A stretch of DNA of 35,978 bases from Eledone cirrhosa (lineage: Eukaryota): assembly GCA_964016885.1 (NCBI GenBank), contig CAXHJY010001218.1, forward strand, positions 1 through 35,978, in the 5' to 3' direction. Of this stretch, positions 1 to 33,527 are shown in pieces (position 1 is the first letter of the stretch; each line of letters opens with the position of its first letter). Both the position numbers and the translations under genes were made by a program. The notes beneath the pieces were generated by a model. The model had not been told where the DNA came from. It was given only the letters and a program-made list of their open reading frames with translations, and did not search any database.

Positions 1-326
1 AGGCATACCGAAAACGATAAATTGAAACAAAATGAAAACGAAATTTCATTTCTCACTCTTAGTATGGCAATTACTTAAATGTAAGTATGCATGTATACGT
101 ACTACATATATGTATACAGACGTACAGTAGCATGCACATATATATATATATATATACATATATACATACATATGCATACAGGTACACATACATATATGCA
201 CGTATCAGTTTAGCGGCGCTTATTATAACGTCGCTTTGTTCGTTTGTAAACAAACTGAACAGCCTGAATTTATGCCATACGGTGTTAAGGCAACCACGTC
301 ACCTTTTTGTTCAACACTGACACAGG

Positions 327-371
327 AACGATGTACTAGTTTCAAGCTTGTTAGCTATCATCAGCACCGTT
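327..371 (-). ncRNA. Minimal type I hammerhead ribozyme (474-bp unit, copy 1)
   Basis: Minus strand reads AACGGTG-CTGATGA-T-AGCT(AACA)AGCT-T-GAA-ACTAGT-A-CATCGTT: 7-bp stem I with one G-U, 4-bp stem II, palindromic stem III ACTAGT, GUA cleavage triplet. Confidence 0.75.
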
Positions 372-800
372 TACCCATCTGCCAGATAGTTGAACGTTCC
401 AAAGTATATACTTTCCTTATGAAAATTAACGGCTGAGCAGCCTAATTTGCATATTGAGTGAGTTAAATCGGTCAGGCATACCGAAAACGATAAATTGAAA
501 CAAAATGAAAACGAAATTTCATTTCTCACTCTTAGTATGGCAATTACTTAAATGTAAGTATGCATGTATACGTACATACATATATGTATACAGACGTACA
601 GTAGCATGCACATATATATATATATATATACATATATACATACATATGCATACAGGTACACATACATATATGCACGTATCAGTTTAGCGGCGCTTATTAT
701 AACGTCGCTTTGTTCGTTTGTAAACAAACTGAACAGCCTGAATTTATGCCATACGGTGTTAAGGCAACCACGTCACCTTTTTGTTCAACACTGACACAGG

Positions 801-845
801 AACGATGTACTAGTTTCAAGCTTGTTAGCTATCATCAGCACCGTT
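801..845 (-). ncRNA. Minimal type I hammerhead ribozyme (474-bp unit, copy 2)
   Basis: Identical to 327-371. Confidence 0.75.
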
Positions 846-1513
846 TACCCATCTGCCAGATAGTTGAACGTTCGAAAGTATATACTTTCCTTATGAAAAT
901 TAACGGCTGAGCAGCCTAATTTGCATATTGAGTGAGTTAAATCGGTCAGGCATACCGAAAACGATAAATTGAAACAAAATGAAAACGAAATTTCATTTCT
1001 CACTCTTAGTATGGCAATTACTTAAATGTAAGTATGCATGTATACGTACATACATATATGTATACAGACGTACAGTAGCATGCACATATATATATATATA
1101 TATACATATATACATACATATGCATACAGGTACACATACATATATGCACGTATCAGTTTGTTTACAAACGAACAAAGCGACGTTATAATAAGCGCCGCTA
1201 AACTGATACGTGCATATATGTATGTGTACCTGTATGCATATGTATGTATATATGTATATATATATATATATATGTGCATGCTACTGTACGTCTGTATACA
1301 TATATGTATGTACGTATACATGCATACTTACATTTAAGTAATTGCCATACTAAGAGTGAGAAATGAAATTTCGTTTTCATTTTGTTTCAATTTATCGTTT
1401 TCGGTATGCCTGACCGATTTAACTCACTCAATATGCAAATTAGGCTGCTCAGCCGTTAATTTTCATAAGGAAAGTATATACTTTCGAACGTTCAACTATC
1501 TGGCAGATGGGTA

Positions 1514-1558
1514 AACGGTGCTGATGATAGCTAACAAGCTTGAAACTAGTACATCGTT
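1514..1558 (+). ncRNA. Minimal type I hammerhead ribozyme (474-bp unit, inverted copy)
   Basis: AACGGTG CTGATGA TAGCTAACAAGCTT GAAACTAGTA CATCGTT; predicted cleavage after 1551. Confidence 0.75.
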
Positions 1559-1800
1559 CCTGTGTCAGTGTTGAACAAAAAGGTGACGTGGTTGCCTTAA
1601 CACCGTATGGCATAAATTCAGGCTGTTCAGTTTGTTTACAAACGAACAAAGCGACGTTATAATAAGCGCCGCTAAACTGATACGTGCATATATGTATGTG
1701 TACCTGTATGCATATGTATGTATATATGTATATATATATATATATATGTGCATGCTACTGTACGTCTGTATACATATATGTATGTACGTATACATGCATA

Positions 1801-4139
<2,339 letters not shown>

Positions 4140-7100
4140 CTAAGGCGGGTAAAATTCCCGAGATCCATGGACGAGTTCTCTCCAGCGGTCTCTGTCCCTC
4201 ATTATCGCTGCCATATCCTGCATCTCCAACAGACCAGTGTCTGTCCTTAGGGCATCAACATTTGTTAACCTTGGTCTTCCTCTTCTAGTGTGTCCATGTA
4301 GGGGCTCCCAAAGGAGCACTGAGTGCAATGTCAACTCTGGATGTCGGTGAGCACGTCCAGCCAACCTCAGTTACCTCTGTGTCACTTTTGAGCTGACTTT
4401 TGGGATGCTCCCATACAGCTCTGAGTTGTTCATCCTCAGTGTATACTGATTAATGTTCAGAGCCATCCTGAGCATTCTCGTGTAGCACCCATCCACCATC
4501 TGAGTGAGTCTCTTGGTCAGTGTCCAAGTCTCAGACACATACAGCAGCACAGACTCCACTACAGCAATGAAGAGGCGGATTTTCAGGTCTCTACGAAGGT
4601 CCGACTTCCACACCGATCTCAAGCTGTGACACGCCACCCAGGCCTTGCTCTTCCTCTCAACCACATCATCTTCCGTATTCCCAATCTTTGCTCCCAAATA
4701 CAGGAAGTCCTCAACCAATTCCAGCGGCTTCCGGCCTACATTAGTGATCCCCTCTGGCTTCTCAACATTCTCTACCAGATATTTTGTTTTAGTCTCATTC
4801 ATTCTCAGCCCCACACTCATCGACACAGTCTCAACCTCCCGCATCAAATCCTCTGCCTCCTTTACTGTATTTGTCACCAAAACTATGTCGTCGGCAAATT
4901 CAGCATCCGATACCTTTTTCGCCCCAACTCTCCTGCTCTGAGCCGGTGTTACAGTAAAGCCAGAGTCCTGGTGTTTCTCCAGTGCAAGGCGCATACAATA
5001 GTCCACTGCGATGATAAAAAGGTAGGGAGCCAATGTATCTCCCTGGAGCACTCCAGCCAGTATCTCAAAGAACTCTGTCATCCCATCAGGTGTAATGACT
5101 TGGGCTTTGGTGTTGGTGTAGAGCAGTGATATCAGGTACACTATCCTCTTGGGGATTCCATAAGCCTGTAAGATCTTCATCAGGCAGTAACGGTCCACAG
5201 AATCAAAGGCCTTCCTAAAGTCAATGAAAACCATGACCGCAGGAAGACACTTTGCTCTAGCTCCCTCTAATATCCTCCTCAGCATCAGAATGTGACTGGT
5301 GGTTGATCTACCCTCTCTGAAGCCGTTCTGGTTGTCCCTGAGCTTCTTCTCCATCTCAGGCTGGATCCTGTTAAGAATCATCCTGTTGAGGGTCTTTGCC
5401 ACAAGTGACGTCAGTGAGATCCCCCGGTAGTTGTTGGTGTTAGAGAGATCTCCCTTCTTTGGCACTGGGACGATGTTACTGATCCTCCACTGATTCAGGG
5501 CAACTCCTTTCTCCAGTGCCCCGTTACAGAACCCCAGGATGATATCATAAAAATCACACCTCTTCATCACCTCTGATGCCACTCCATCTTCTCCATGAGC
5601 CTTGCCCTCCTTGATCTTCTTCTTGGCTCTCTGAAGCTCCTCTCTGGTGAAGGGCTCTGTCTCAACATCCAGTTCCTCAAACAGCCGCCTGATCTCCCCA
5701 GTGCTCTGGGCTGTGGAGGGTGGCTCTCCTAGTAGGCTCCTAAAATGGTCTAGCATTTCCTCTTCCTATCCTCGGGCCCCGTTCCCTGGATCTGACTCGA
5801 ACACCTTTTCTTCCTCCCTGTGATCTCGTTGATGATCATCCAGCTCTCCTTACATCCAGATCTGTCAACCGCTCTCTCCACACTTCTGATATTCTCTATC
5901 AGTGCCTCCTCTCTGACCTCAGTGTAAGCGGTACAGAGCTCTTCCCTCATCACCTCGACAGTCTCCATCCTCTCCTCCGTAGGATCAGCATAGAATTGGT
6001 CCCTGGCAGCTTTCAGGTGTTCTCTGGCTGCACACACTTTTGGGTTTGCAGAGCTGACGTGCTTCCCTTTGTTCTTTTTCCTCGGCACCAGGGTTTCACT
6101 TGCTTTCGCCACTGCATTGGTGAAGTGCCCGTACCTCCTCGTCACACTCTCCCCAGTCCATCCAATCTCTCTCTCCTCTGACTCTCCACACAGAGCACTA
6201 AACCTGTTTCTCACTTCCACTGTGAACCTCTCCTGTAGCTTATCATCTTCCTTGAAAGCTCCCCAGTCATAGATTGTTCTCCGGGGCTGAGCCTTGCTCT
6301 TTCTTAAGTTCACGCGGACCTCACTCATAACAAGCCGGTGGTCACTACCCAGTGTACTGAAATAGCTGTATGGTTCCGTGTTCAGAACACTATTCCGCCA
6401 CTTTTTCCTCACCAGAATGAAATCAATCTGGGACTTGGACAGGTGCATATCTGAGATGTAGGTCCACATCTTCCCCAGATTCTTCCTAAACCTTAGGTTG
6501 GTCGCCATCAAGTTCGCCTCCAGCAGGGTGTCTCTCAGTAGTCTTACATTTCGGTTGGTGTTGTTATGGAAGTACCAGCAAGGATCTTCACTGCCCTCCT
6601 TACTCAGATGTGCATTGACGTCCCCCAAAACAAGCAGGATATTGTGTGCCTGAGTGGTGTTGACAGCTCTACACACCTCCTCATGGAACTCCTCGGCATT
6701 CACATCACTGTCCCCCTCGGTTGGACTATAGGCTGAGATGACTGTCAGTCTTGGGTTTCCATTGAAGGTCACCCTCAACACTCGCGGGGAGATAGGCATT
6801 ATTTCCCTCACCAACAGATTGGTTTTTGCACTGAACACAAAACCCACTCCTCCTACTGCAGCATTTGTTGTGTTCTTCACTGCCGATGTAGTGATGAGCT
6901 GGCTCTTCCTCCCGATCATCACACTCCTCACGGGCTCATCGTGTAGAATCCTGTGTTCTTGGATCGCAAGTATCTGTATACCACTCTCCTCGAACAGATG
7001 TCCCAACTCCTCTCTCTTCTCCAGCGTTCGAATAGTCCTCACATTCAAAGTGCCCATTTTGATGGCTCTTCTGCAGGACAAAACTGCATTCTTTATATTT

Positions 7101-7246
7101 GTCTCAGAGACAGCTGATCCATCATCCACTGGCCCTCTCTGTGGCTGTAAGCCAGCAGAGTCATAACGACCAGGCTGCTCCTTGACAGTGTAATTAGGGG
7201 CTCTAACCCTAGTGCTGTTAGATCGACTCTCCATATTTCTTTTCAA
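4140..7246 (-). pseudogene. RTE APE endonuclease-reverse transcriptase polyprotein, disrupted
   Basis: APE motifs GTLNVRT, AIQEHR, SAYSPT, GDVNAH, QIDFILV, GSDH. RT motifs NYRGISL, QNGFR, FIDFRKAFD, GVLQGDTLAP, FADD. C-terminal RLAG...GRP. Frameshift near 5753 (TGC TAG where TGG CTA would keep the frame) and an in-frame TAA at 4371-4373. Confidence 0.92.
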
Positions 7247-7446
7247 TGGCTGACATTAACTTACCGGCGCCACTCGAATAAGGTAGTTATTTAACCCATA
7301 AATGGAGCCCTAAGAGGTACTACCACCCCGGGCCAGGGCAGACCTGGGAGTCATGACAACTAAGGGGTAACTCCACATTCCCCACATCTCCTGAACTCCC
7401 GAAATGGAGCCTTGCCACTGGATGTAGTTTAATGTCATACCCAGGA
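4140..7446 (-). mobile_element. RTE-clade non-LTR retrotransposon, apparently full length (about 3.3 kb), inactivated
   Basis: A 200-nt 5' leader, then one APE-RT reading path with no ORF1. Flanked by a candidate 32-bp target-site duplication (4107-4138 / 7447-7478). Confidence 0.9.
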
Positions 7447-9431: not shown

Positions 9432-10097
9432 ATATGAAATACGTCCCTTCACGCACAAGGCGCCAAGGTACGCATGTATTGTCCAACCAAGTGCCAGTGT
9501 GGTTCAATGGCGGGTTAATAAATTAACGAGCCAGAACAAATATAAACAAGGTTTAGTAAATAATGAAAAAGTTTCAAAATAAATTTTTAAAAATTGACTT
9601 TACCTACTATAGTTACCTTTACCGATCGGTTTCGAATCCCAAAAATAAAACGGAGACCATACGGCCTTCGTTGCAAAGAGAGATTCTCGTCAGAAGGTTC
9701 TTTTCATTCAAAGAATATAAAATTCCTGAATTTAAATCACAAACTAGCGCTATCAAAAACTGTTCCTGGGATGAGAGTGGATGGTGTAGAACAGGTTTAT
9801 CAAGGGCCGTAGCAAAGATAGAGGCAAAAGGAGGTAGGTCAAACTAGCCACCGCTGTTGCCAGCAGCAGTCGGAATGACCCGGTTTGTTCTCAACGTTTG
9901 TGGAGGTAGTAGTAATATGAAATACGTCCCTTCACGCACAAGGCGCCAAGGTACGCATGTATTGTCCAACCAAGTGCCAGTGTGGCTCAATGGCGGGTTA
10001 ATAAATTAACGAGCCAGAACAAATATAAACAAGGTTTAGTAAATAATGAAAAAGTTTCAAAATAAATTTTAAAAAATTGACTTTACCTACTATAGTT
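9432..10097 (-). mobile_element. 483-bp non-coding unit in partial tandem (1.38 copies) with a hammerhead ribozyme; retrozyme-like
   Basis: 9432-9614 is repeated almost exactly at 9915-10097. Hammerhead at 9615-9698. No ORF on the ribozyme strand. Confidence 0.85.
9615..9698 (-). ncRNA. Type I hammerhead ribozyme with canonical core and extended stem II
   Basis: Minus strand reads ACCTT-CTGACGA-GAATCTC...GGGATTC-GAA-ACCGATCGGT-A-AAGGT: perfect 5-bp stem I, 7-bp G-C-closed stem II capped by a second hairpin (AACG-A-AGGCC-GTAT-GGTCT-C-CGTT), 10-nt palindromic stem III, GUA triplet. Predicted cut between 9620 and 9619. Confidence 0.88.
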
Positions 10098-10356
10098 TAC
10101 ATATATATATATATACATATATATATACATACATATATACATACATATATATATACATACATATATACATACATATATATATACATACATATATACATAC
10201 ATATATATATACATATATATATACATATATATATACATATATATATACATATATATATACATATATATATACATATATATATACATATATATATACATAT
10301 ATATATACATATATATATACATATATATATACATATATATATACATATATATATAC

Positions 10357-10391
<35 letters not shown>

Positions 10392-10552
10392 CATACATAT
10401 ATACATACATATATACATACATATATACATACATATATACATACATATATACATACATATATACATACATATATATATACATACATATATATATACATAT
10501 ATATATACATATATATATACATATATATATATATACATATATATATACATAC

Positions 10553-10583
<31 letters not shown>

Positions 10584-10720
10584 CATATATATATACATAT
10601 ATATATACATATATATATATATACATATATATATACATATATATATATATACATATATATATACATATATATATATATACATATATATATACATATATAT
10701 ATATATACATATATATATAC

Positions 10721-10751
<31 letters not shown>

Positions 10752-10850
10752 CATATATATATACATATATATATATACATACATATATATGTACATATAT
10801 ATATATACATATATAGATATATACATATATATATACATATATATATATAC

Positions 10851-10917
<67 letters not shown>

Positions 10918-10956
10918 CATATATATATACATATATATATACATATATATATATAC

Positions 10957-11001
<45 letters not shown>

Positions 11002-11002
11002 C

Positions 11003-11037
<35 letters not shown>

Positions 11038-11096
11038 AGTATATATATACATATATATATATATATACATATATATGTATACATATATATATATAC

Positions 11097-11131
<35 letters not shown>

Positions 11132-11244
11132 CATATATATACATACATATATATATATACATATATATATATACATATATATATATACATATATATATAT
11201 ACATATATATATATATACATATATATATATACATATATATATAC

Positions 11245-11327
<83 letters not shown>

Positions 11328-11332
11328 CAGAC

Positions 11333-11363
<31 letters not shown>

Positions 11364-11412
11364 TATAGAAATATACATATATATATATACATATATATAT
11401 ATATACATATAC

Positions 11413-11477
<65 letters not shown>

Positions 11478-11561
11478 CATATATATATATATACATATAC
11501 ATATATATATATACATATATATATATACATACATATATATATACATTATATATGAATTTAC

Positions 11562-11601
<40 letters not shown>

Positions 11602-11646
11602 ATTATATATATACATATATATATATACATATATATATATATACAT

Positions 11647-11678
<32 letters not shown>

Positions 11679-11691
11679 CATATATATATAC

Positions 11692-11743
<52 letters not shown>

Positions 11744-11747
11744 ATAC

Positions 11748-11805
<58 letters not shown>

Positions 11806-11893
11806 ATATATACATATACATATACATATATATATATATACATATACATATATACATATATATATATACATATACATATATATATATATACAT

Positions 11894-11939
<46 letters not shown>

Positions 11940-11943
11940 ACAT

Positions 11944-11989
<46 letters not shown>

Positions 11990-11999
11990 ACATATACAT

Positions 12000-12033
<34 letters not shown>

Positions 12034-12121
12034 ATATATACATATACATATACATATATATATATATACATATACATATATACATATATATATATACATA
12101 TACATATATATATATATACAT

Positions 12122-12167
<46 letters not shown>

Positions 12168-12171
12168 ACAT

Positions 12172-12249
<78 letters not shown>

Positions 12250-12357
12250 ATATACATATACATATATATATATACATATACATATATACATATATATATA
12301 TATATACTTATATATATATATACATATATATATATACATATATATATATACATATAC

Positions 12358-12420
<63 letters not shown>

Positions 12421-12499
12421 CATATATATATATACATATATATATATATACATATATATATATACATATACATATATATATATATATACATATATATAC

Positions 12500-12532
<33 letters not shown>

Positions 12533-12574
12533 CACATATATATATATATACATATATATATATACATATACATA

Positions 12575-12608
<34 letters not shown>

Positions 12609-12891
12609 CATATATATATACATATACATATATATATATACATATATATATATATACATACATATATATATATATACATATATATATACATATACATATA
12701 TATATATACATATATATATATATACATATATATATACATATACATATATATATATACATATATATATACATATATATATACATATACATATATATATATA
12801 TACATATATATATACATATATATATATATATACATATATATATATCCATATATATATATATACATATATATATATACATATATATATATAC

Positions 12892-12959
<68 letters not shown>

Positions 12960-12965
12960 ATATAC

Positions 12966-12996
<31 letters not shown>

Positions 12997-13039
12997 CATA
13001 TATATATATACATATATATATATATACATATATATATAC

Positions 13040-13094
<55 letters not shown>

Positions 13095-13138
13095 CATATA
13101 TACATATACATATATATATATATATACATATATATATA

Positions 13139-13219
<81 letters not shown>

Positions 13220-13246
13220 GTATATATATATATGTATATATATATG

Positions 13247-13322
<76 letters not shown>

Positions 13323-13334
13323 TATATGTATATG

Positions 13335-13368
<34 letters not shown>

Positions 13369-13390
13369 TGTATATGTATATATATGTATA

Positions 13391-13422
<32 letters not shown>

Positions 13423-13673
13423 CATATATATATACATATATATATATTTATATATATATATACATATATATATACATATACATATATATACATATACATA
13501 TATATACATATAAATATATATATATATATATATACATATAATTATATATATATATATATATACATATAATTATATATATATATATATACATATAAATATA
13601 TATATATATATACATATAAATATATATATATATATACATATAAATATATATATATATATATATATACATATAA

Positions 13674-13704
<31 letters not shown>

Positions 13705-13821
13705 CATATAAATATATATATATATACATATAAATATATATATACATATAAATATATATATATATACATATAAATATATATATATATATATATATACATA
13801 TAAATATATATATATATATAC

Positions 13822-13852
<31 letters not shown>

Positions 13853-13861
13853 GATATATAT

Positions 13862-13900
<39 letters not shown>

Positions 13901-13919
13901 AATATATATATATATATAC

Positions 13920-13950
<31 letters not shown>

Positions 13951-13969
13951 AATATATATATATATATAC

Positions 13970-14000
<31 letters not shown>

Positions 14001-14029
14001 AATATATATATATATATACATATAAATAT

Positions 14030-14063
<34 letters not shown>

Positions 14064-14127
14064 ACATATATATATATACATATATATACATATATATATA
14101 TACATATACATATATATACATATATAC

Positions 14128-14180
<53 letters not shown>

Positions 14181-14221
14181 CATATATATACATATATATA
14201 TATATATATACATATATATAC

Positions 14222-14270
<49 letters not shown>

Positions 14271-14275
14271 TATAC

Positions 14276-14346
<71 letters not shown>

Positions 14347-14357
14347 CATATATATAC

Positions 14358-14406
<49 letters not shown>

Positions 14407-14411
14407 TATAC

Positions 14412-14478
<67 letters not shown>

Positions 14479-14505
14479 CATATATATACATATATATATA
14501 TATAC

Positions 14506-14542
<37 letters not shown>

Positions 14543-14687
14543 TATACATATATATATACATATATATACATATATATATATATACATATAAATATATATA
14601 TATATATATATATACATATATATACATATATATATATACATATATATACATATATATATATACATATACATATATATACATATATAC

Positions 14688-14744
<57 letters not shown>

Positions 14745-14755
14745 CATATATATAC

Positions 14756-14804
<49 letters not shown>

Positions 14805-14848
14805 TGTATATATATATATACATATATGTATATATATATATATATACA

Positions 14849-14930
<82 letters not shown>

Positions 14931-15093
14931 CATATATAAATATATATATATACATATATATATATATACACACATATATATATATATACATATATATATA
15001 TACATATATATATACATATATATATACATATATATATATATACATATATATATATACATATATATATATATACATATATATATATACATATAG

Positions 15094-15127
<34 letters not shown>

Positions 15128-15159
15128 ATATACATATACATATATACATATATATATAC

Positions 15160-15190
<31 letters not shown>

Positions 15191-15230
15191 CATATATATA
15201 CATATATATATATATATATACATACATATA

Positions 15231-15271
<41 letters not shown>
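10098..15271. repeat. 5.2-kb interrupted (TA)nCA microsatellite with variant domains
   Basis: Direct reading. A TATG patch lies at 13188-13386 and a TAAATA-variant domain at about 13510-14700. Confidence 0.98.
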
Positions 15272-15278
<7 letters not shown>

Positions 15279-16416
15279 TAACAACAAAGAGCGCTTAGAA
15301 CATAGGTATATCTTTAATTGCTAACAGTGTTTCGTCCACACTAGAAGTGGGACTCTTCAGACTATAAAGAGTAAATACATAGTATACAAGCATTGACAAA
15401 GCCAAAACAGAAGAATATATGCGGGGATACCATAAGTTGGGAGGAGTTTAAAGAGTAAAGTAAAAAGAGTAAAATAAGAAAAGAGTAAAATAAAAATAAA
15501 CATAAAAATAATAAAAATATTAAAAATAAAAATAAAAATAAAAATACAATAAAAATAAAAATAAAAATAAAAAAAATAAAAACAAAAATAAAAATAAATA
15601 AAAATAAAAATAAATATAAAAATAAAAATAAAAATGAAAATGAAAAATAAAAAATAAAAAATAAAAAATAAAAAATAAGAAATGTTATCACTCACAGTTG
15701 GGCAGGGTTCCGTTAACATACAGCTACATACAAGTATATGCATAAGCATGAGCACCCGCATGCACCTACCACAAGCACCCATATGCAACACATACAATAT
15801 ACACTCATACAAGTAACATATCATAGACGGATGGGCACAAGTTAAGAGATAGAGATAGAGAAAAAATAGATAAGAGGTAGATAAAAAATAGTTAAAAAAA
15901 TAGATTAAAAAATAGATAAAAAAATAGATAAAAAATAGATAAAAAATAGATAAGAAATAGATAAAAAATAGATAAAAGATAAAAAATAAAAAATAATAAA
16001 ATAAAATAAAATAAAATAAAATAATATAAAGTAGAGTAAAATATACACCAGAAGATAAATAAAACAATACACCAAAAAAAATGGAGTAAAATATACACCA
16101 TAAAGGAAGGTGTGGGTAAAGATAAGACTGGCAAATGCATAAGCTATCAAGCTATGTTCAACAAGTGATATACGTACAACATATAAAATACACAAAAATA
16201 TATATACAAAAATATATATAAAAAATATATATAAAAGAGACGTATATATAAGGATATATATATGTATATATACACATATCAGTCCAAGTAATGCATATTT
16301 ATAAAGATGTAACTGGGGGTAAAAAGGTGTAATAAGGGTAATCAAGATGGTAATTATTAGGGCATGTAATAATAATATTAATATAGAAATCCTAAGGTGA
16401 CACTAGTGTTGACTCA
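15272..16416 (-). repeat. 3' pseudo-LTR of the Nematis-type PLE
   Basis: Direct repeat of 20480-21640, differing mainly in the lengths of the (AAAAAT)n and (AAAAAATAGAT)n tracts. Confidence 0.92.
15311..15370 (-). ncRNA. Minimal type I hammerhead in the 3' pLTR (stem I partly disrupted)
   Basis: TCTTTATAGT-CTGAAGA-GTCCCAC(TTCTA)GTGTGGAC-GAAACACTGTT-AGCAATTAAAGA. Confidence 0.7.
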
Positions 16417-16569
16417 TGGTGATATATGGAATATATCAGGACACGAACGCCTTAGGTGTTGCAGTTAGCCACAGTTCAACAATAGAGTGTTCGAATGAGA
16501 TTTTTTATGAACAGATGCTATGTCCGCACTAGATTGAGTTGACCATTACAATGCAATGGAAACATCCCA

Positions 16570-16704
16570 GGTTGGACAGTCCCAAAAGTTCACACTCCAA
16601 AGTTCAATCCACAGGTGTGCATTCATAGAGTTGAGCGGTTGGGCAATCCGAAAAAGTTCACACTACAAAGTTCAATACACAGATGTGCATTCATAGAGTT
16701 GAGC
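16570..16704. repeat. Diverged 67-68-bp tandem duplication in the PLE 3' non-coding region
   Basis: GGTTGGACAGTCCCAAAAGTTCACACT...ATTCATAGAGTTGAGC occurs twice (16570-16636, 16637-16704). Confidence 0.85.
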
Positions 16705-17855
16705 ACTCAGGCAAGAATTAACTGGTTAACAAGGTGTATCCATATCACAAGCAGGAGCAAATGCTGGGAAGGTTTGAGGCAAATTCATATACCGCAGCAC
16801 GAACATCAAGAGGCAAATAACTGAGGCGCATATTAGTGAGCAGAAGCAGGCAAGTGCAGGTGGTAAAACACAGTCAGGTGAAGCAGGTTATTATGCATAC
16901 CATTTAATATAATATAAGATAAGAAAACTCAACAACAGTGCATAACAAATAGCTTCCAAAGCCGATAACCACAAAATCATAACATTGAGCAACAATCCGG
17001 CACCACAAGAATATACTCAACATTAGGGTTAGTCCAGAGACAGTATATGTATACTTATACATACACACATACACACAGACATGTATATGCAGAGACAGTA
17101 TACGTACACATATATACAGAATATTCAAAATACAACCTTATGAGGAGATGCGTATTCCCACGTGTAGTCACCAGATTCAATTATAAACAAACCGTTAATA
17201 AATACGGAAGGCTATCGGGGCCAAAACATTATTCTTGGGAGAATAACACAGAGCGTCAATCTATGGAAGACCAACTATGCCAAAAATACACCGGGCAAAA
17301 ACACCCCAAAGTCAGCGTGTAGACTGTGAGCCGCAGAATAGGAGGGTAACACATACATGTACTCCATATCTACCGCCCACGGCGAGATGGCACAGGTCAG
17401 CTCACAGTGACTGGCTAACTCTCCGTCCCATATGGGCACAGGCCCATTGGTTCACCACGAGTCAAAGGTAATTTAAATAAACTAAAATAAGATAAAATGC
17501 GAGGGGCAGGTTAAATCTAATCAATTGTGCATCTTATAACGCAGTACACACTCTACATAGATGTATTACATCACAACTCATGAGCATACAAAGGTACAAA
17601 TCCATACAATACACGTTGGGATAGACCCACCAATACGCAAACACACACACGGTGGCTGGGCAAGTATGGAAGGGTCACATCCACTGTACCGAACAAGGGT
17701 GCTTATTAACATATACACCAACTCACGTATACACCTCGATATCCAAATTCCATATACACATTCAGGTATACATATACACACAGACACATATACAACCAAG
17801 ACAAACAATAGGAGACAAATACACTAGATTACCCAACTGGAGAATTCTGAAAGTG

Positions 17856-20318
17856 CTAGCTAATAGGCTTAAAGTAAAAGAAAGAGCTTAATATCCGGTG
17901 GGGGCATGAGGAAAATATTTCCGACTTTCTATTTAGTAGGGAGCACTTGGCAAATATAATAGAGTGGGATTCCGTAAGGCATAGGTTACATACTCTATTA
18001 TGAGGAGTATATGGATGGGATTTAGCAACTTGCCGCCAAGTGAGGGTGTACTGTGTTCGTGCATTTTTTAAATTGTGGACGTGCGCTGCCAAGGGGGTAG
18101 AATTCTTCAGTTTATTATGTCTAAATGTACACTGGTGAGAGTTAAATCTGGTTTTAAAAGGGGTGGAAGTTGATCCAATATAAGTTTTAGTGGACGCAGT
18201 AGTTACCACATCACACGCATAAACTATGTTTCTAGTAAGGCAGAAACCATTCAGGGGGCAGCCCGAAGCCCTTCTACAGTTACAATTTCTGGTGATGCTA
18301 TTATCTAAATGATCACCAGCTTGGTGACCACGGGTGTTCAGGCTACCTCTGTCGACTCCAATGTTTTCCCCTAGGCGTAAGGTGTCGAGGCCTTCCTTAA
18401 TTTTCTTATTATTGGTATTGGCTAGATGAGAGGCCAGATTTTGGGTTGTAGAATACGAGAGTTTAACCACATTCTTATTGAGGATAGAGTGGTACCTATT
18501 ACCAGGAGGGAAGTTCCTCTCTAACACAGAGAAGAAGGCCCTAGGAATATTCGTAGCCACTTCGGAGTTAAATGGGGGGTTAAAATATGTATTCAATCTT
18601 CTTCTATTCTTTTTGTTCTTATTATTATTACTATTACTATTATTACTATTACTATTATTATTACCATTATTATTATTATTAATTCCATTGCTAAGGTTAC
18701 TATGTTCACCTAATCTATGCGGGGAGCTAAGAGGCCTACCGTTATTGTTACTTGGTCCATTGGTACCCTGTTGGTGCATTTTACCGGCATTCAAAACCCT
18801 CATGTTCGAAACACCTCTATTACCAATGGACATATTATGTGTTATAACAACACTGGTAGAGCTACTATTTGGACTATTATTTCCCTGGGCATAATGTAAT
18901 TTGTCCCTAAAGCCGGATCTAGCTAAGGCATCATTATAATAATCAGCCTGCGAGTTAAACGCCTCTTCGCTATGTGAGAGTGAACTTATTCTGCTAGAGA
19001 CCCCCTTCAATATACCACCGATGACCGATTTAGGATGGTTGGAGTTAGTATTCACATAAGTCAGCAATTCATTAGGCTTATGGTAGGGTGTGTACGTATG
19101 GTTACCTAAGTCCAATGTAACATCAAGGAAGTTGACAGTCCTATCATTTATATCCATAGTAATGGACAGATTGAAGGTTTTAAAGAATTTATACAGCTTT
19201 TTCCTAATGCGCACTATATTATACTTGCTAGCATCTATGGAGAGTAGGGCATCATCACGGTACAACCCACCCCTAAGGAATGGAAAGTTACTATGTAGTT
19301 CAGTAAGGAGGTAGAGCCCAACTAAGTCGGTGACCTGAGCAGAATCACTTGACCCCATAGTAATGTCAAAATTATCCGGTGTGTTTTTTCTCGTCCATAA
19401 ATTATCCTCAAACATAATGATGGTTTTACGTGCGGCGAGAACGATATCTATCTGTGGCCGTGTAATGACCCCTCTCTGCATGGCTAGGATAAGGGCCTTA
19501 TTGAGGATGATAGGAGATATAGATGTATAATAAGCATCAATATCAAATTGGATAAACCTAAGCGAATCACGCCCACAATCCGTAGAAAACCACCTAATGA
19601 CTTCACTAGCATTACCCCAAAGCTCAAGGAATGTTTTTCTTTAACCAGGGGAATTACGCTATCTAAGATTCTCTTACTTATAAACCCCAAATCAGACTTG
19701 GAGGGGCAGATAAGCCTAACTGAGGGGCTACTAATAAAGTTTTCCTTATGGTCCTTAAGGGTGAATCTAGGCTGTTTGGGGTAATATGGTTGAGTGTGTT
19801 TATCTAGACCTAATTTTACTACTATGTTAATATTATTAACATAGATTAATATTATCTAAATTACTCTGCGTTGTTTTTTTGTAGTTCCTATGTAGTTCAT
19901 TATAAATGAAGCCACGATAAGTTTTATAATCCATACTATACAGGTTTTTAGTTTTGTCGGAAGGGACCAGAATAGATTTATTATCCTTAAAGTCCTTAAC
20001 GATTGAACCGAGTTTACTCTGAAAGTTATTGGTACATCTAGATTTTTTATACCTAATATTCCTGACAAGGGATAACAGCTCACTTTCGAAATTATCCAAT
20101 AGGCTATTGTGTGTGGGGCTCCTATATGTCTTAAAGCCATAATTATTAAAACTACACTTATCATCAGGGTTATCATACTTCTTATCAAAATAGAACGCAC
20201 GCTACCGAACACGTTTTACAAAGGAATTTATGCTAGTTATAAGCAATTTCTCATATGAAATTTTAGAAGAGGTGGGAATATTCTTCAAAGAAATGGGTAA
20301 GTATGTCTTTGTTAGCAT
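17856..20318 (-). pseudogene. PLE reverse transcriptase-GIY-YIG endonuclease, disrupted
   Basis: ATG at 20318 gives MLTKTYLPISLKNIP..., with a TAG at 20202-20204 and frameshifts near 19835 and 19630. Motifs TLKDHKENF, FIQFDIDAYY, FDITMGSSD, GLYRDDA, NFLDVTL, FNPPF, CNC..CPL..C, IVY...YIGST..FKTRFNSH, CNLCLTE, LLN...CPH. Confidence 0.92.
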
Positions 20319-21640: not shown

Positions 21641-21695
<55 letters not shown>

Positions 21696-21859
21696 ATATA
21701 TATATACATATATATATATATACCTATATATATATATACATATACATATATATATACATACATATATATATACATATATATATACATACATATATATATA
21801 CATATATATATACATACATATATATATACATATATATATATACATATACATATATATAC

Positions 21860-21891
<32 letters not shown>

Positions 21892-21925
21892 ATATACATA
21901 TATATATACATATACATATATATAC

Positions 21926-21959
<34 letters not shown>

Positions 21960-22489
21960 ATATATACATATACATACATATATATATATATACATATATA
22001 TATACATATATATATATATACATACATATATACATACATACATATATACATATACATATATATACATATATATATATATATATACATACATACATATATA
22101 CATATACATATATATACATATATATATATATATACATACATATATATATACATATATATACATATATATATACATATACATACATATATATATATATACA
22201 TATACATACATATATATATATATACATATATATATACATATATATATATATACATACATACATACATATATACATATATATACATATATATATATATACA
22301 TACATATATATATACATATATATATACATATATATACATATATATATACATATATATACATATATTTATACATATATATATATATACATACATACATATA
22401 TATATACATATATATACATATATATATACATATATATATATATACATATATATACATATACATATATATATACACATATATATATATAC

Positions 22490-22520
<31 letters not shown>

Positions 22521-22521
22521 C

Positions 22522-22612
<91 letters not shown>
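21641..22612. repeat. Interrupted (TA)nCA microsatellite
   Basis: Direct reading. Confidence 0.98.
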
Positions 22613-22614
<2 letters not shown>

Positions 22615-22662
22615 TATAGATAGGTAAATATACACGGGTGTGTATGATTGTGTATAGAAGAT

Positions 22663-23191
22663 TATATTAATAAGAGGAATTCCAACTTTGTCTGATTTAC
22701 TCGTTTTATTTACAATCCTTTAAAATATATATAATGGTATTATAATGAAATAGTATGATAGAATATTAAATTCTAAGTGTTAATTGAACAAGTACTTTCA
22801 TGCTTTCGCAATCTTCAGGTTCATGATATGTGGTGACAGTCGAGTTTGCAATTTTCAACTGTAATGAGATGGGTAAATTTCCTACCTTTTATACATTTTA
22901 TACAGAGAAAAGTGGCTCCAGAATGCAAAGCCCTGCAAACTGTATTTCGACCAATCAGTGTGTAGTTTCACTGAATTACTACAGCTGATTGGTTTAAGCG
23001 TCACGGCTGGTTGAGCATGCTAACGACCAATAGTCATATCCAACGTATCAATTGTTTTGCTTTTTTGAAATGATGAAAATAGCATTTTCTATTAATCATC
23101 ACCATCAACATCACTTTTATTATTATTATTATTGTTGTTGTTGTTGTTGTTAGTGGTCGTGGTCATAGTGGTAGTAGAAGTAATACCCCTA
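22663..23191 (-). repeat. Inverted copy of the 3' pLTR (27030-27558)
   Basis: Mirror coordinates sum to 50221. Four substitutions noticed in 529 bp. Confidence 0.95.
22785..22823 (-). ncRNA. Minimal type I hammerhead in the inverted pLTR
   Basis: Reverse complement of 27398-27436. Confidence 0.8.
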
Positions 23192-23522
23192 CGTCTTGTA
23201 GAATTCTTCGCTGATAAAAATAATGAGAGTGATGAATCACTAGTAAAGAATAATATTCTATCATACTATTTCATTATAATACCATTATATATATTTTAAA
23301 GGATTGTAAATAAAACGAGTAAATCAGACAAAGTTGGAATTCCTCTTATTAATATAATCTTCTATACACAATCATACACACCCGTGTATATTTACCTATC
23401 TATATCTATATATATATTCCTATTGTGTATATGCCAACATGTCTGGAAAGCAACAAATGAAACCAACAGAATCATAAAGAATTCTAAAGGAGATATCATC
23501 GAAATTATCAACACTTATCACG

Positions 23523-24788
23523 ATGATGGACACACAATCCTCTATTTTAAAGGAAATAGAAAAACAATCTACAGACGGAAAACTTATAACTGAACATATA
23601 AACTCTGAAATTAAGAATTTAGCTGAAATTATACCAACAGTTATCAAAGATACAAGAGAAAGCCTACCACAACCCCCTTGGATGTCAGAAATAAACGAAA
23701 GAAATTTGGAAAACAAAACACATCGAATAAGAAAAGAAATGTGGAAGACATGGAAAAAATTCCTTAACATAAGAAAACAAAATTTCTGGAAAGCATACAG
23801 ATGCGAAAAATATGTCGAAACACATTCGAAATGGCTCTCTCTAACGGCACCCATACTCCCTCGTAAATACCTAATTACAGAAATTGCAGGAGAACCAGAA
23901 GAAGAAACAAAACTCCGATGGGAACTTACATTGACAAAATTCAGGACCGACATCTCCATTTCTGAATGTAAACAATCCCGCTACAAAGCCAAATATGAAG
24001 CTATTGATGACCAAATTGAAGTTGAAATTTCAAAGCTAACGACTGGTATTATAGCTGAAAAACTACGAGAACTATGGATCGGAGATATCTCAAAAGAAGA
24101 AAACAAATCAAGAAAGGTATGGCAGCAGAAACAATTATTTCTCGATGAATATGCTGCAAATTACGGTAAAGACTCTGGAACCCTGAGAAAAAGCATTAAA
24201 AGTGGACAATCTCATCAACACAACATACGCCAGAACACGTGCCAACACAAACACTCACCTTACCTTGAATCAAAGAAGAACTACGGTAATAACTCTTCGC
24301 TTTTTCTACAAAAACACCCTATCGCACACAACATGAACAAAAAGCACAAACACGATAGGTATTCCTTTGACCAGACCATGAGAAGTAGTAAAACCAGGAG
24401 ATCATTCTCAAGATCTCAACAGAGACTACCAACAAGGAATGTGGAAACAAAACGTAGAATAACCAGATCACTCTCAAGATCTCAACAGAGATTGCCCACA
24501 AGAAACTGGACGAAAAAACGATCTAAACCTGAAAGCAAACCTAGGTCATTTTCCCAGATTGTTAAAAATAATGCTAACAGGAAGAAAAATAATATACAGA
24601 ATACCAAAAATAGGACAAAATACATAACGAAACCAAATATAATATCACGACCAAAAGTTCATCAAGCGAACACCAACAGGAATATAAATCCTGAACAGAG
24701 AAAAATTCATTTTTTAACGTCAGGACAACAAAAACCGGAAAAAGAAAAACTCCAGGAGGAAACATACCCAAAACAGCTGTACACGTAG
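23523..24788 (+). CDS. PLE upstream ORF1 (421 aa): charged helical N-terminal half and basic Arg/Ser/Lys-rich C-terminal half; function unknown
   Basis: Long open frame inside the element with a duplicated RSxSRSQQRLPTRN motif (66-nt period, 24399 and 24465). The ancestral start is probably ATG 23439, which is in frame but followed by one TAA at 23475-23477. Confidence 0.75.
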   Translation: MMDTQSSILKEIEKQSTDGKLITEHINSEIKNLAEIIPTVIKDTRESLPQPPWMSEINERNLENKTHRIRKEMWKTWKKFLNIRKQNFWKAYRCEKYVETHSKWLSLTAPILPRKYLITEIAGEPEEETKLRWELTLTKFRTDISISECKQSRYKAKYEAIDDQIEVEISKLTTGIIAEKLRELWIGDISKEENKSRKVWQQKQLFLDEYAANYGKDSGTLRKSIKSGQSHQHNIRQNTCQHKHSPYLESKKNYGNNSSLFLQKHPIAHNMNKKHKHDRYSFDQTMRSSKTRRSFSRSQQRLPTRNVETKRRITRSLSRSQQRLPTRNWTKKRSKPESKPRSFSQIVKNNANRKKNNIQNTKNRTKYITKPNIISRPKVHQANTNRNINPEQRKIHFLTSGQQKPEKEKLQEETYPKQLYT

Positions 24789-27022
24789 ATCCTAAAATAA
24801 TTAATTTATCTAAAAGAGATCTTGACAATGATGAAATGCAAATTCTGTCAAAAGGACTGAAATTCACACCGATTCCAACAGTCAACCACCAAGAACTGAA
24901 GGAGGATACCCAAGAATTCTGTCGAAAATTACGTCTTGTAGAATTCTTCGCTGATAAAAATAATGAGAGTGATGAATCACTAGTAAAGAATAAATCAAAT
25001 TTCACTCCGCCAAAAGGAAGAAATATCTATCTCGACCAATACATTGACATCCTGTCTAAATTTCCTCTTAGACATAATACTAATGTTAGGCCAAACATTA
25101 ACAAATCAGAAATGTCTGCACTTAAACGTATACAAAATGATAAAACAATAATAATTAAACAAGCAGATAAAGGGGGTGCAGTTGTTATAATGGATACTGA
25201 ATACTACAAGGATTTGGTTGAGGAACAACTGAAAGACACAACATTCTATCATGAAATACCGTCAAATATAGACCACAACATCATGAAGAAGATCAACAAC
25301 CTGGCTTCAAAATACCACAACTCATTTACTGATAAGGAAAGAGACTACATCACCAATTTTGAGCCGAAACCCAGCAACCTGTATGGCCTACCGAAAGTTC
25401 ACAAGTCAAAAGAAATACAACTGGCAGTAAGAGAACAAAACAGTGTGTACATTAAATTATTACACCCAAAAGACTTAAAACTTAGACCTATTATAGCTGG
25501 TCCAACATGCCCCACTCACCGTCTAAGCAATTTTGTTGACATTATTTTGAAACCACTATGTATTCACATACCCAGTTTCATCCGGGATGATATCGACTTC
25601 CTGTCCCATCTTCCCCAAACCACGGAAACGAATTCACTTCTACTCAGTTTTGATGTGGTAAGCCTTTACACCAACATTACACATGATTTAGGAATAAAGG
25701 CGGTTAAATACTGGGTGGAAAAACATAGAGAAGTGATTCCCATTAGATTCACAGCGCCATTTATATTAGACGCAGTTAAACTTATTCTGGAAAACAACAC
25801 TTTCTTCTTAAATGGAAAGAATTACATCCAAATTAGAGGCACAGTGATGGGAACGAAGTTTGCTCCCGTTTACGCGAACTCTGTAATGGGATACTTAGAA
25901 CAACAACTCTACCAAGAAATAGAGGAAAAATATAGTACTGACTTTAGAAAGTACATTGAAAAATCTTGGAAGAGATACCTTGACGACTGTTTCATCATCT
26001 GGACAGAATCTCTAGATACTCTGGATGAGTTCAATATCCTCCTGAATAACCTACACCCATCTCTCCAATTCACAAAAGAGATGAGTAGGACCAAATTACC
26101 ATTCCTAGATATAATGATAATCAAAAACGACACCACCATTACCACGGATATATATTATAAACACACAGACACCCATCAATATCTGAATTTTAAGTCGTGC
26201 CATCCACCTCATACAAAACGCAACATCCCATACTGCCTAGCCAGAAGAATTTGTACCATTGTAGAAGATACGAATACCAGGTACAAACGCCTAACAGAAC
26301 TAAGAGAATTTTTGCTCAAACAAAAATACCCATCTCTACTTATAGAAAATGGCATACAGCGGGCTATAAAAATACCTATACAACAACTTAGAACAACCCA
26401 AAGAAGAAGAAACCAAGAACTGGTCATACCATTTATAATGACACACAACCCATGTCACCAGAATATCTTCAACACTGCCAAAGCAAACCTACCGATCATT
26501 GCTCAAAGTAATGAATTAAAAGGCTTAATCACAGATCGATCTTTGACTCTTAGTAAAAGACAGCCAAAAAATTTGAAGCAATTGCTAACAAAAGCAAAGT
26601 TTGACCTTAACAACAAAGACCAATCATTCACTGTATCTAAATGCAATGATAATCGATGCGGCACATGTCAATCCATACACGCCGGTCAATATATGAAAAC
26701 AAAAACTGGAAAAATATTCACAAATGCAAATATGAACTGCAAAAGCAGAAATCTAATTTACTGCATTAAATGCCCGAATTGTGAAGAACTATATGTCGGT
26801 CAAACTGGAAATGCACTATCGGAACGTGCACGGGTACACCGTCAACAAATCAGAGACCCAAATGTCCGTCAGATACCCCTAAGCGGCCACCTGGCAACAT
26901 GTGGTCAGGGAATATTTATAATATTCCCATTCTACAAATTACACAGCCCAAATGAAATCAAGAGAAAAATCAAAGAAAAGAATTTTATTGATAAATTCAA
27001 ACCCAAGCTAAATGAACAATAA
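24695..27022 (+). CDS. PLE reverse transcriptase-GIY-YIG endonuclease, intact frame (first ATG at 24836; frame open from 24695)
   Basis: IINLS (upstream of the ATG), LSKGLKFTP, KQADKGG, YGLPKVHK, LRPII, SFDVVSLYT, GTVMGTKFAP, RYLDDCF, PFLDI, C-xxx-RC-xx-C linker, LIY...C..C...YVGQT...R...H. Confidence 0.95.
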   Translation, partial: TEKNSFFNVRTTKTGKRKTPGGNIPKTAVHVDPKIINLSKRDLDNDEMQILSKGLKFTPIPTVNHQELKEDTQEFCRKLRLVEFFADKNNESDESLVKNKSNFTPPKGRNIYLDQYIDILSKFPLRHNTNVRPNINKSEMSALKRIQNDKTIIIKQADKGGAVVIMDTEYYKDLVEEQLKDTTFYHEIPSNIDHNIMKKINNLASKYHNSFTDKERDYITNFEPKPSNLYGLPKVHKSKEIQLAVREQNSVYIKLLHPKDLKLRPIIAGPTCPTHRLSNFVDIILKPLCIHIPSFIRDDIDFLSHLPQTTETNSLLLSFDVVSLYTNITHDLGIKAVKYWVEKHREVIPIRFTAPFILDAVKLILENNTFFLNGKNYIQIRGTVMGTKFAPVYANSVMGYLEQQLYQEIEEKYSTDFRKYIEKSWKRYLDDCFIIWTESLDTLDEFNILLNNLHPSLQFTKEMSRTKLPFLDIMIIKNDTTITTDIYYKHTDTHQYLNFKSCHPPHTKRNIPYCLARRICTIVEDTNTRYKRLTELREFLLKQKYPSLLIENGIQRAIKIPIQQLRTTQRRRNQELVIPFIMTHNPCHQNIFNTAKANLPIIAQSNELKGLITDRSLTLSKRQPKNLKQLLTKAKFDLNNKDQSFTVSKCNDNRCGTCQSIHAGQYMKTKTGKIFTNANMNCKSRNLIYCIKCPNCEELYVGQTGNALSERARVHRQQIRDPNVRQIPLSGHLATCGQGIFIIFPFYKLHSPNEIKRKIKEKNFIDKFKPKLNEQ
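24710..24716 (+). promoter_or_regulatory. Candidate -1 programmed ribosomal frameshift slippery site (T TTT TTA)
   Basis: X XXY YYZ heptamer correctly phased to ORF1 (CAT TTT TTA). It lies 15 nt after the last stop (TGA 24692-24694) of the -1 frame that encodes RT. Confidence 0.65.
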
Positions 27023-27189
27023 TAACGCCTAGGGGTATTACTTCTACTACCACTATGACCACGACCACTAACAACAACAACAACAACAATAATAATAATA
27101 ATAAAAGTGATGTTGATGGTGATGATTAATAGAAAATGCTATTTTCATCATTTCAAAAAAGCAAAACAATTGATACGTTGGATATGACT

Positions 27190-27335
27190 ATTGGTCGTTA
27201 GCATGCTCAACCAGCCGTGACGCTTAAACCAATCAGCTGTAGTAATTCAGTGAAACTACACACTGATTGGTCGAAATACAGTTTACAGGGCTTTGCACTC
27301 TGGAGCCACTTTTCACTGTATAAAATGTATAAAAG
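27190..27335 (+). promoter_or_regulatory. Putative Pol II promoter in the pLTR
   Basis: Three CCAAT/ATTGG boxes (27190, 27229, 27266) spaced 37-39 bp apart, then TATAAAA twice (27319, 27328), about 65 nt upstream of the hammerhead. Confidence 0.5.
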
Positions 27336-27397
27336 GTAGGAAATTTACCCATCTCATTACAGTTGAAAATTGCAAAGTCGACTGTCACCACATATCA

Positions 27398-27436
27398 TGA
27401 ACCTGAAGATTGCGAAAGCATGAAAGTACTTGTTCA
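27398..27436 (+). ncRNA. Minimal type I hammerhead ribozyme in the 3' pLTR
   Basis: TGAAC-CTGAAGA-T-TGC(GAAA)GCA-T-GAA-AGTACT-T-GTTCA: perfect 5-bp stem I, GNRA-capped stem II, palindromic stem III. Predicted cut after 27431. Confidence 0.8.
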
Positions 27437-27556
27437 ATTAACACTTAGAATTTAATATTCTATCATACTATTTCATTATAATACCATTATATATATTTTA
27501 AAGGATTGTAAATAAAACGAGTAAATCAGACAAAGTTGGAATTCCTCTTATTAATA

Positions 27557-28348
<792 letters not shown>

Positions 28349-28464
28349 TTAAGATAAGCAGAACAAGTAAAATTCAATCAATTTTTCAAAATACATTAAA
28401 AAATATAATATAAATATTTACCTCTTCTAGTGGCCCTTACTGTCCCTGGACATATTAACTTCTA

Positions 28465-33527
<5,063 letters not shown>

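Follow-up and report, generated by a model that had tools for sequence, protein, structure and literature searches.

A two-armed insertion of a 474-nt hammerhead repeat in Eledone cirrhosa, probably a retrozyme copied by a PLE reverse transcriptase

The first 1,804 nt of the stretch of Eledone cirrhosa DNA analysed here (the window, 35,978 nt; contig CAXHJY010001218.1 of assembly GCA_964016885.1, forward strand) hold two arms of a 474-nt repeat, set head to head and joined at one end to a (TA)n microsatellite. This is very probably a young insertion of a many-copy, non-coding, two-armed hammerhead repeat, a likely non-autonomous non-LTR retrozyme for whose copying into (TA)n a Penelope-like element (PLE) would have supplied the reverse transcriptase. 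The class is known and the family new, and a published hypothesis already has PLEs driving the mobilisation of such repeats; the locus adds a clean footprint of the copying step, with two arms, a probable 65-nt tail and a microhomology junction. The most informative feature is the inversion, overlooked in the first-pass annotation, which had described 1–1804 as a 474-bp tandem repeat. The period, the near-identity of the units and the single hammerhead in each unit hold up, but a simple tandem does not, as 1153–1804 is inverted. The element and its flank are laid out as follows.

1..1159, minus strand: left arm, at least 2.44 head-to-tail 474-nt units with their sense on the minus strand, running off the left edge of the window
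1153..1159, no strand: head-to-head junction on the 7-nt microhomology TCAGTTT; the unit also contains the complement of this word, 47 nt off (1200–1206)
1153..1804, plus strand: right arm, an inverted copy of 652 nt (one unit plus 178 nt), whose 3′ end joins (TA)n
1805..4139, no strand: (TA)n/(TATACA)n microsatellite of the host, into which the element was likely inserted

Tandem Repeats Finder returns a period of 474, with 2.4 copies and 99% matches at 1–1159, and self-comparison places the 474-nt units at 99.7% identity. All differences between the units, two in number, are in unit 1, which lacks 1 nt near 102 and has C for G at 400. The direct tandem is confined to 1–1159, and by self-comparison the remainder is a reverse-complement copy of units 2–3, identical along its full length. 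At 1804 the right arm ends and enters a 2.3-kb TA/TATACA microsatellite. Each arm passes a predicted ribozyme cut site and a unit boundary, and the right arm alone is longer than one unit; the template would thus have been either a circle or an uncut multimer. The 5′ end of the left arm lies 130 nt past the start site of the right arm, so the arms overlap, an arrangement that disfavours L1-type twin priming on one linear RNA.

The unit was first described as lacking coding capacity, and the reading frames agree: the longest ATG frames reach 40 aa in the sense direction and 76 aa in the antisense, while 101-aa stop-to-stop frames traverse the TA tract. The GC content of the unit is 0.35, and there is no LTR arrangement.

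Three type I hammerheads are found in the element, one per unit, and the inverted right arm puts them on opposite strands.

1514..1558, plus strand: type I hammerhead of the right arm, predicted cut 1551/1552, after GUA
801..845, minus strand: type I hammerhead of unit 2, predicted cut 808/807
327..371, minus strand: type I hammerhead of unit 1, predicted cut 334/333

The palindromic stem III (ACTAGT) and the cut at 1551/1552 are as first annotated, although the cut site cited sits in the inverted arm. The core CUGAUGA...GAAA...GUA is present in all three copies, with C3 U4 G5 A6 N7 G8 A9, G12 A13 A14, the A15.1-U16.1 pair and H17 in place and the stems in type I order. Stem I has 7 bp, stem II a U.U and 4 bp, and stem III 2 bp with a 2-nt loop (palindrome ACUAGU). 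The predicted cut sites of the consecutive minus-strand hammerheads (327–371 and 801–845) lie 474 nt apart, with no ORF between them. Not one of 20,000 dinucleotide shuffles of the unit satisfies the hammerhead descriptor, and a scan of both strands of the whole window gives seven hits: three in the 474-nt element, identical to one another, three in PLE ends, and a loose match at 8693 that was set aside. In an Rfam search the element gives no gathering-level hit; below threshold there is a weak Hammerhead_HH9 match at 1507–1569 (18.5 bits, E 0.1). MicroRNA-family matches on the TA tract, all far below gathering score, were rejected as composition effects of AT hairpins.

As a predicted ribozyme, the hammerhead motif looks maintained but weak. 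The G10.1-C11.1 pair of hammerheads is highly conserved but not absolute, and here it is absent, with a U.U at the base of stem II. In the predicted fold the 4 bp of stem II have pair probabilities above 0.9, and stem III, as a 6-bp dimer duplex, is predicted at -4.8 kcal/mol. The core-proximal pairs of stem I reach probabilities of just 0.18–0.28 in the dimer context, and the folding z-scores of the isolated hammerhead (-0.9 and -1.2) are not significant. Among 25 variable sites listed over 1328–1668 in public contigs, none falls on the 24 positions of the core (12) and stems II and III (12), with P of about 0.15, post hoc and from a filtered table; the two sites inside 1521–1551 are N7 and loop II (P of about 0.02, post hoc, from the same filtered table). 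The variant 1514 A>T (about 35% of the depth in public run X1) breaks a stem I pair, as does the rarer 1518 G>T, neither with a partner change among the variants listed, and 1518 G>A improves stem I. A short palindromic helix III is described as a mark of hammerheads that work as dimers (Cervera and de la Pena 2014, PMC4209133), with which the dimeric mechanism suggested in the first-pass annotation is consistent, and the same paper reports poor in vitro cleavage by PLE hammerhead variants.

We compared the unit with public data. The run search lists 24 runs, none of them of RNA (which has no bearing on expression), and the full unit was matched against the contigs of X1, X11, X4 and X5; X1–X3 are one sample, and X1, X2, X3 and X11 are one study, possibly the window's own source, so that they do not count as independent of the host individual. 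Contigs matching one full unit number 5,293 in X1, 72 in X11, 19 in X4 and 1 in X5, counts by which the 474-nt repeat is a many-copy family. Overlapping contigs cover unit positions 1353–1615 unbroken. The share of contigs that continue into unlike sequence is 0 in X1 (of 5,293, rounded) and 0.01 in X11 (of 72), in a comparison that leaves out 1195–1327, uses loose ends of at most 30 letters and draws on the 20 listed of 136 loose ends. The name retrozyme, given at the outset, is supported by the ORF-free 474 nt from cut to cut, by the many-copy family and by the continuity of the unit over 1353–1615.

The contigs also reveal where copies of the family end, and two sites can be placed on the right arm.

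1797..1804, plus strand: 'short' end of the window copy, in phase with 1330; in the read-through RNA it falls at the loop of a stem-loop predicted to have 6 bp
1388..1395, plus strand: 'long' end site, where other family copies run into (TA)n; it is placed 65 nt past the short end, and the window copy reads through it

A second end recurs in the family: copies give way to (TA)n 65 nt further on than the end at 1804. With 1328–1450 as the query, contigs passing from 1395 into (TA)n number at least 11 of 1,903 in X1, 9 of 1,528 in X2, 7 of 1,700 in X3 and 1 of 28 in X11, among the 22 listed of 85 loose ends. These contig ends concern other copies, because the window copy reads through 1395. A sequence variant ends at the same site in at least 2, 3, 5 and 1 contigs (X1, X2, X3 and X11), with TA letters visible in three of the four rows. 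The short end is seen in the window copy alone, the contig comparison having left out 1195–1327.

Loose contig ends at 1376–1420 and 1579 belong to a diverged subfamily of the unit that, in the letters visible, keeps the first four octamer bases in place. The contigs of X4 come from another organism and cover 1328–1550 in 19 contigs; at window 1498–1550 X4 contigs share the hammerhead region alone and then diverge on both sides, which suggests that other families may carry a near-identical hammerhead motif. One X4 contig is an exact match to 1348–1460. The 15 studies listing matches were not read as horizontal transfer: of the two other-organism runs compared, X4 and X5, X5 (share 0.74) gave just one contig with a 35-nt match, and such shares likely come from TA-tract words.

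An inverted 5′-truncated copy, a tail and a (TA)n bias are given as hallmarks of PLEs (Craig et al. 2021, PMC8557442). In the window copy an inverted 5′-truncated copy adjoins the 5′ end, and (TA)n is joined both at 1804 and by the long-end contigs of the family. The window itself supplies a comparator.

21642..28579, plus strand: two-armed, ORF-bearing PLE, not part of the 474-nt element, with RT and GIY-YIG at 24695–27022 and TA flanks

The GIY-YIG domain of the comparator scores 27.8 bits, above its cut-off, and RVT_1 27.5 bits, below its cut-off of 29.6; the translation shows a CX4CxxC linker, described as a Neptune/Nematis-type motif (PMC8557442). Hammerhead cores lie at 27403 (plus strand) and 22818 (minus strand); as in the 474-nt unit, stem II has a U.U at its base and stem III is a palindrome of 6 nt. 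Its arms end at 27558 and 22602, a phase difference of 61 nt that TA homology blurs by a few nt. The spacing between the two 3′ ends, 61 nt in the comparator and 65 nt in the 474-nt family (the short end being known from one copy), exceeds the published PLE tail of 30–40 nt (PMC8557442), which counts against the PLE reading. Beyond TA tracts, the unit has no similarity to either PLE of the window; the best non-TA match to the PLE ends, 36 nt on the opposite strand (E 0.18), was rejected. No clear common RNA hairpin or fold was found between the tails of the 474-nt unit and the comparator. With neither a common sequence nor a clear tail fold, the comparator can be said to share the footprint but is not thereby identified as the driver.

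The comparator has the same two-armed layout as the 474-nt element, which speaks against an origin at the DNA level. By that account, the array would be a satellite formed by unequal exchange or fold-back repair, or else an assembly fold-back, and its ribozyme a relic of a PLE end; we hold this to be improbable. Amplification and assembly are both known to create microhomology fold-backs as artefacts, and the public contigs contain no joint across the inversion, a region left out of the comparison. Local tandem amplification from a PLE terminus has also been proposed (Li, Clavereau and Pollet 2026, bioRxiv 10.64898/2026.07.22.740005). However, the mirror symmetry of the arms breaks off at 1804, where the right arm leaves the unit for the TA repeat, and contigs repeatedly show the second fixed end, again with (TA)n behind it.

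It is similarly doubtful that the array is the multiplied pseudo-LTR of an autonomous ORF-bearing PLE, with an ORF that was lost at the 5′ junction or lies beyond the window's left edge. PLE pLTRs are known to carry such hammerheads, in tandem and inverted (PMC8557442, PMC4209133), and retrozymes are reported as homologous to pLTRs (bioRxiv 10.64898/2026.07.22.740005). The left end of the array is outside the window, and the contig comparison, with its loose ends of at most 30 letters, partly listed, and the TA tract left out, leaves room for rare ORF-linked copies of the unit. In the comparator, however, the ATG of the ORF region follows 14 nt after the long end, whereas the 474-nt copy runs on at that point into the rest of the unit. 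The unbroken contig cover over 1353–1615 and the near-zero share of unlike run-on in X1 and X11 likewise weigh against an attached ORF, as does an RNA period of 474, which is not ORF-sized, with no RT and GIY-YIG ORF between successive hammerheads. Because the left arm is directed away from the junction, any ORF 5′ of the units would have been lost there and is not expected leftward, where the first-pass annotation had proposed to look for it.

For a retrozyme copied by a PLE reverse transcriptase, we propose the following route. Transcription reading through the array, possibly begun at the octamer/TATA-like block that lies a short way upstream of the ribozyme, would produce a multimeric RNA. 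Hammerheads paired via the 6-bp ACUAGU palindrome may cut this multimer into 474-nt monomers, which a host ligase is predicted to close into circles. The PLE protein would nick both strands of the TA repeat, and from each nick cDNA would be made on a circle or an uncut multimer, starting at one or other of two fixed positions inside the RNA; these lie +253 and +318 nt downstream of the cut and 65 nt from each other. The 3′ ends of the two cDNAs could then anneal by the 7-nt TCAGTTT/AAACTGA and prime each other's second strand, yielding the palindrome. For the left arm the route predicts an end at the long site, followed by (TA)n, 458 + 474k nt to the left of window position 1. The proposal that the internal TA tract anneals to the target is unsupported in the window copy, since the arm ends 13 nt past the hairpin of that tract and has about 2 nt of homology (TA).

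The anole Poseidon PAc protein has been reported to nick and extend both strands, with two starting points inside the RNA by which the tail is defined (Frangieh et al. 2024, PMC11167929). That system resembles the route proposed for the 474-nt family in its two internal start sites, its AT-rich target, the extension of both strands and a start site lacking homology with the target; unlike the 474-nt element, it is autonomous, uses a template in cis and can dispense with cleavage (PMC11167929).

The choice between a circular and a linear multimeric template is about even, because the anole result with uncut RNA and the cleavage of one in nine Xenopus dimers keep the linear route in play. The linear variant of the proposed route takes as template an uncut multimer transcribed from an existing array, with a hammerhead that is weak or acts later, and somewhat less than half of our total belief rests with it. 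In the anole PLE the main template is uncut, unprocessed RNA, no reads ended at the cut site and hammerhead cleavage is dispensable (PMC11167929); in vitro cleavage was reported for just one of nine Xenopus retrozyme dimers, the other eight being inactive (bioRxiv 10.64898/2026.07.22.740005). The U.U at the stem II base of the 474-nt hammerhead points the same way, and a homogeneous source array would also yield identical arms. However, abundant circles are described for retrozymes of coral, mussel and axolotl, and a hammerhead of the axolotl that also has a U.U cleaves well as a dimer (PMC7229834). Compared with 100 shuffles in which the TA tract is retained, the circular monomer has the better predicted fold (z -3.5), and both unit-1 differences are missing from the other units, the change at position 400 also being absent from the listed family variants. 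A z of -8 for the circular fold against plain shuffles was discounted, as alternating purine-pyrimidine tracts pair with themselves; the stricter controls give -3.5 and, for the tract hairpin, -2.1.

More speculatively, two PLE reverse transcriptases on opposite strands of one nicked TA repeat may have copied one self-promoted 474-nt circular RNA repeatedly from the two fixed sites, their cDNAs meeting via the 7-nt match, with a PLE like that 20 kb away as the driver and the 47-bp hairpin as a functional RNA element for protein or ADAR binding. We offer this complete version as a tentative one that is more likely wrong than right. If two enzymes did copy one circle, the locus would be genomic evidence for a rolling-circle route that the literature covered here proposes but does not demonstrate. 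Retrozymes have been proposed as passengers of PLEs (PMC7229834; bioRxiv 10.64898/2026.07.22.740005), and an autonomous PLE with the same footprint nearby makes a natural passenger-driver pair for testing circles as template.

Three further features of the unit may bear on transcription and folding.

1433..1440, plus strand: octamer ATGCAAAT, with further copies at 445–452 and 919–926; a possible promoter element, by motif only
1470..1506, plus strand: 16-nt palindrome (1470–1485) with a TATA-like core (1474–1481), then GGCAG (1502–1506), just upstream of the hammerhead; candidate start region
1680..1791, plus strand: alternating purine-pyrimidine tract, predicted 47-bp hairpin, with a copy at 1206–1317 and minus-strand copies in the left arm

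The first two octamers had been recorded before and are confirmed, and the copy at 1433–1440 is a third. The octamer arises by chance in 1,373 of 20,000 shuffles of the unit (6.9%) and so by itself is weak evidence. None of the 25 listed family variants falls inside the octamer or TATA-like motifs (P 0.54 each). The promoter of newt satellite 2 reportedly contains an octamer. Each sense unit has four T4 runs, which would hinder read-through under a Pol III promoter; multimers need read-through, so their formation would be hindered too if the promoter is of that type. Newt satellite 2 (Coats et al. 1994, as cited in PMC2220036) is, like the 474-nt repeat, a hammerhead tandem repeat, and its ribozyme is dimer-dependent (PMC7229834) and its promoter internal and of snRNA type, whereas the promoter in the 474-nt unit is a motif layout alone (octamer, TATA-like core and GGCAG).

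The tract at 1680–1791 is predicted to form a hairpin with 9 G.U and 8 G-C pairs, at -56.6 kcal/mol in the sense strand and -28.3 in the antisense. Against shuffles that keep the purine-pyrimidine pattern its stability is modest (z -2.1; 29 of 1,000). The resemblance of this TA/TG tract to the host satellite, remarked on from the start, is loose: the tract has GT, TG, GC and CG steps that are missing from the TATACA flank, and is predicted to fold as the 47-bp hairpin. An editing scar as the source of the G.U excess was set aside, being inseparable from the strand bias of the host satellite. GC skew is near -1 in the kilobase TA arrays at 1805–4139, 10098–15274 and 27554–33528, where the interruptions are almost all C on the plus strand, a strand bias common to separate TA arrays of the window.

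The 474-nt unit shares with metazoan non-LTR retrozymes (Cervera and de la Pena 2020, PMC7229834) non-coding tandem units with one type I hammerhead each, a GC content below 50% (35% here), the lack of LTR structure and a stably folding circular monomer, which here is a prediction. The axolotl HHR_Amex2 of that paper has the same U.U at the base of helix II. At 474 nt the unit exceeds the RNAs of about 170–400 nt and the 150–450 bp repeats given for metazoan retrozymes (PMC7229834) and lies within the 51–972 bp published range of retrozyme units. Its helix III carries a 2-nt loop, in contrast to the 2 bp and tetraloop of most invertebrate retrozymes, and we found no two-armed insertions, fixed ends or TA targeting described there (PMC7229834). 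Expression is demonstrated for the published elements (PMC7229834), whereas the RNA of the 474-nt family is a prediction. We found no description of two-armed retrozyme insertions in the open retrozyme literature that our search covered, with subscription journals and supplements outside it. Li et al. link retrozymes to PLEs by homology, trees and co-occurrence, mainly in vertebrates (bioRxiv 10.64898/2026.07.22.740005); in the window no homologous pLTR was found, and the link is instead the insertion footprint.

The EN+ PLEs, including Chlamys/MRC1 (PMC8557442), have partial tandems, an inverted 5′-truncated copy, a tail at one end and a (TA)n bias, features that the 474-nt element shares, the tail probably so, and for Chlamys non-autonomous multicopy head-to-tail insertions are described. 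The 474-nt element differs in having no ORF and a probable tail of 65 nt rather than 30–40 (PMC8557442). The MRC1-type elements belong to a clade described as mostly without hammerheads, unlike the 474-nt family (PMC8557442).

Other elements of the window were also recorded. The comparator PLE (21642–28579) has an extra upstream frame of 436 aa (23478–24788) that matches no Pfam family, and at its inversion junction 64 nt from inside the ORF recur without a mismatch (23190–23253 = 24930–24993), which suggests a possible template jump. A second PLE-like element at 15272–21640 (minus strand) is one-armed, with interrupted RT/GIY-YIG-like frames (identified by eye, with no Pfam hit), partial tandem ends of about 1.1 kb and a hammerhead motif at 20568; its 3′ hammerhead copy near 15355 keeps the core but has a disrupted stem I. 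The CxC...C linker of this element differs from that of the comparator, and we take it to be possibly Hydra-type.

At 9432–10097 a 483-nt unit with a 183-nt terminal direct repeat (99%) has TA satellite on both sides, a 'unit plus about 180' shape that resembles the right arm of the 474-nt element. A relaxed scan finds no hammerhead in it, and Rfam gives no hit outside the TA flank; it is possibly a PLE passenger that is ribozyme-less or carries another ribozyme. Two LINE-type retrotransposon fragments, at 4371–7255 (minus strand, APE and RT in two frames) and 33531–35978 (plus strand, RT), each adjoin TA satellite.
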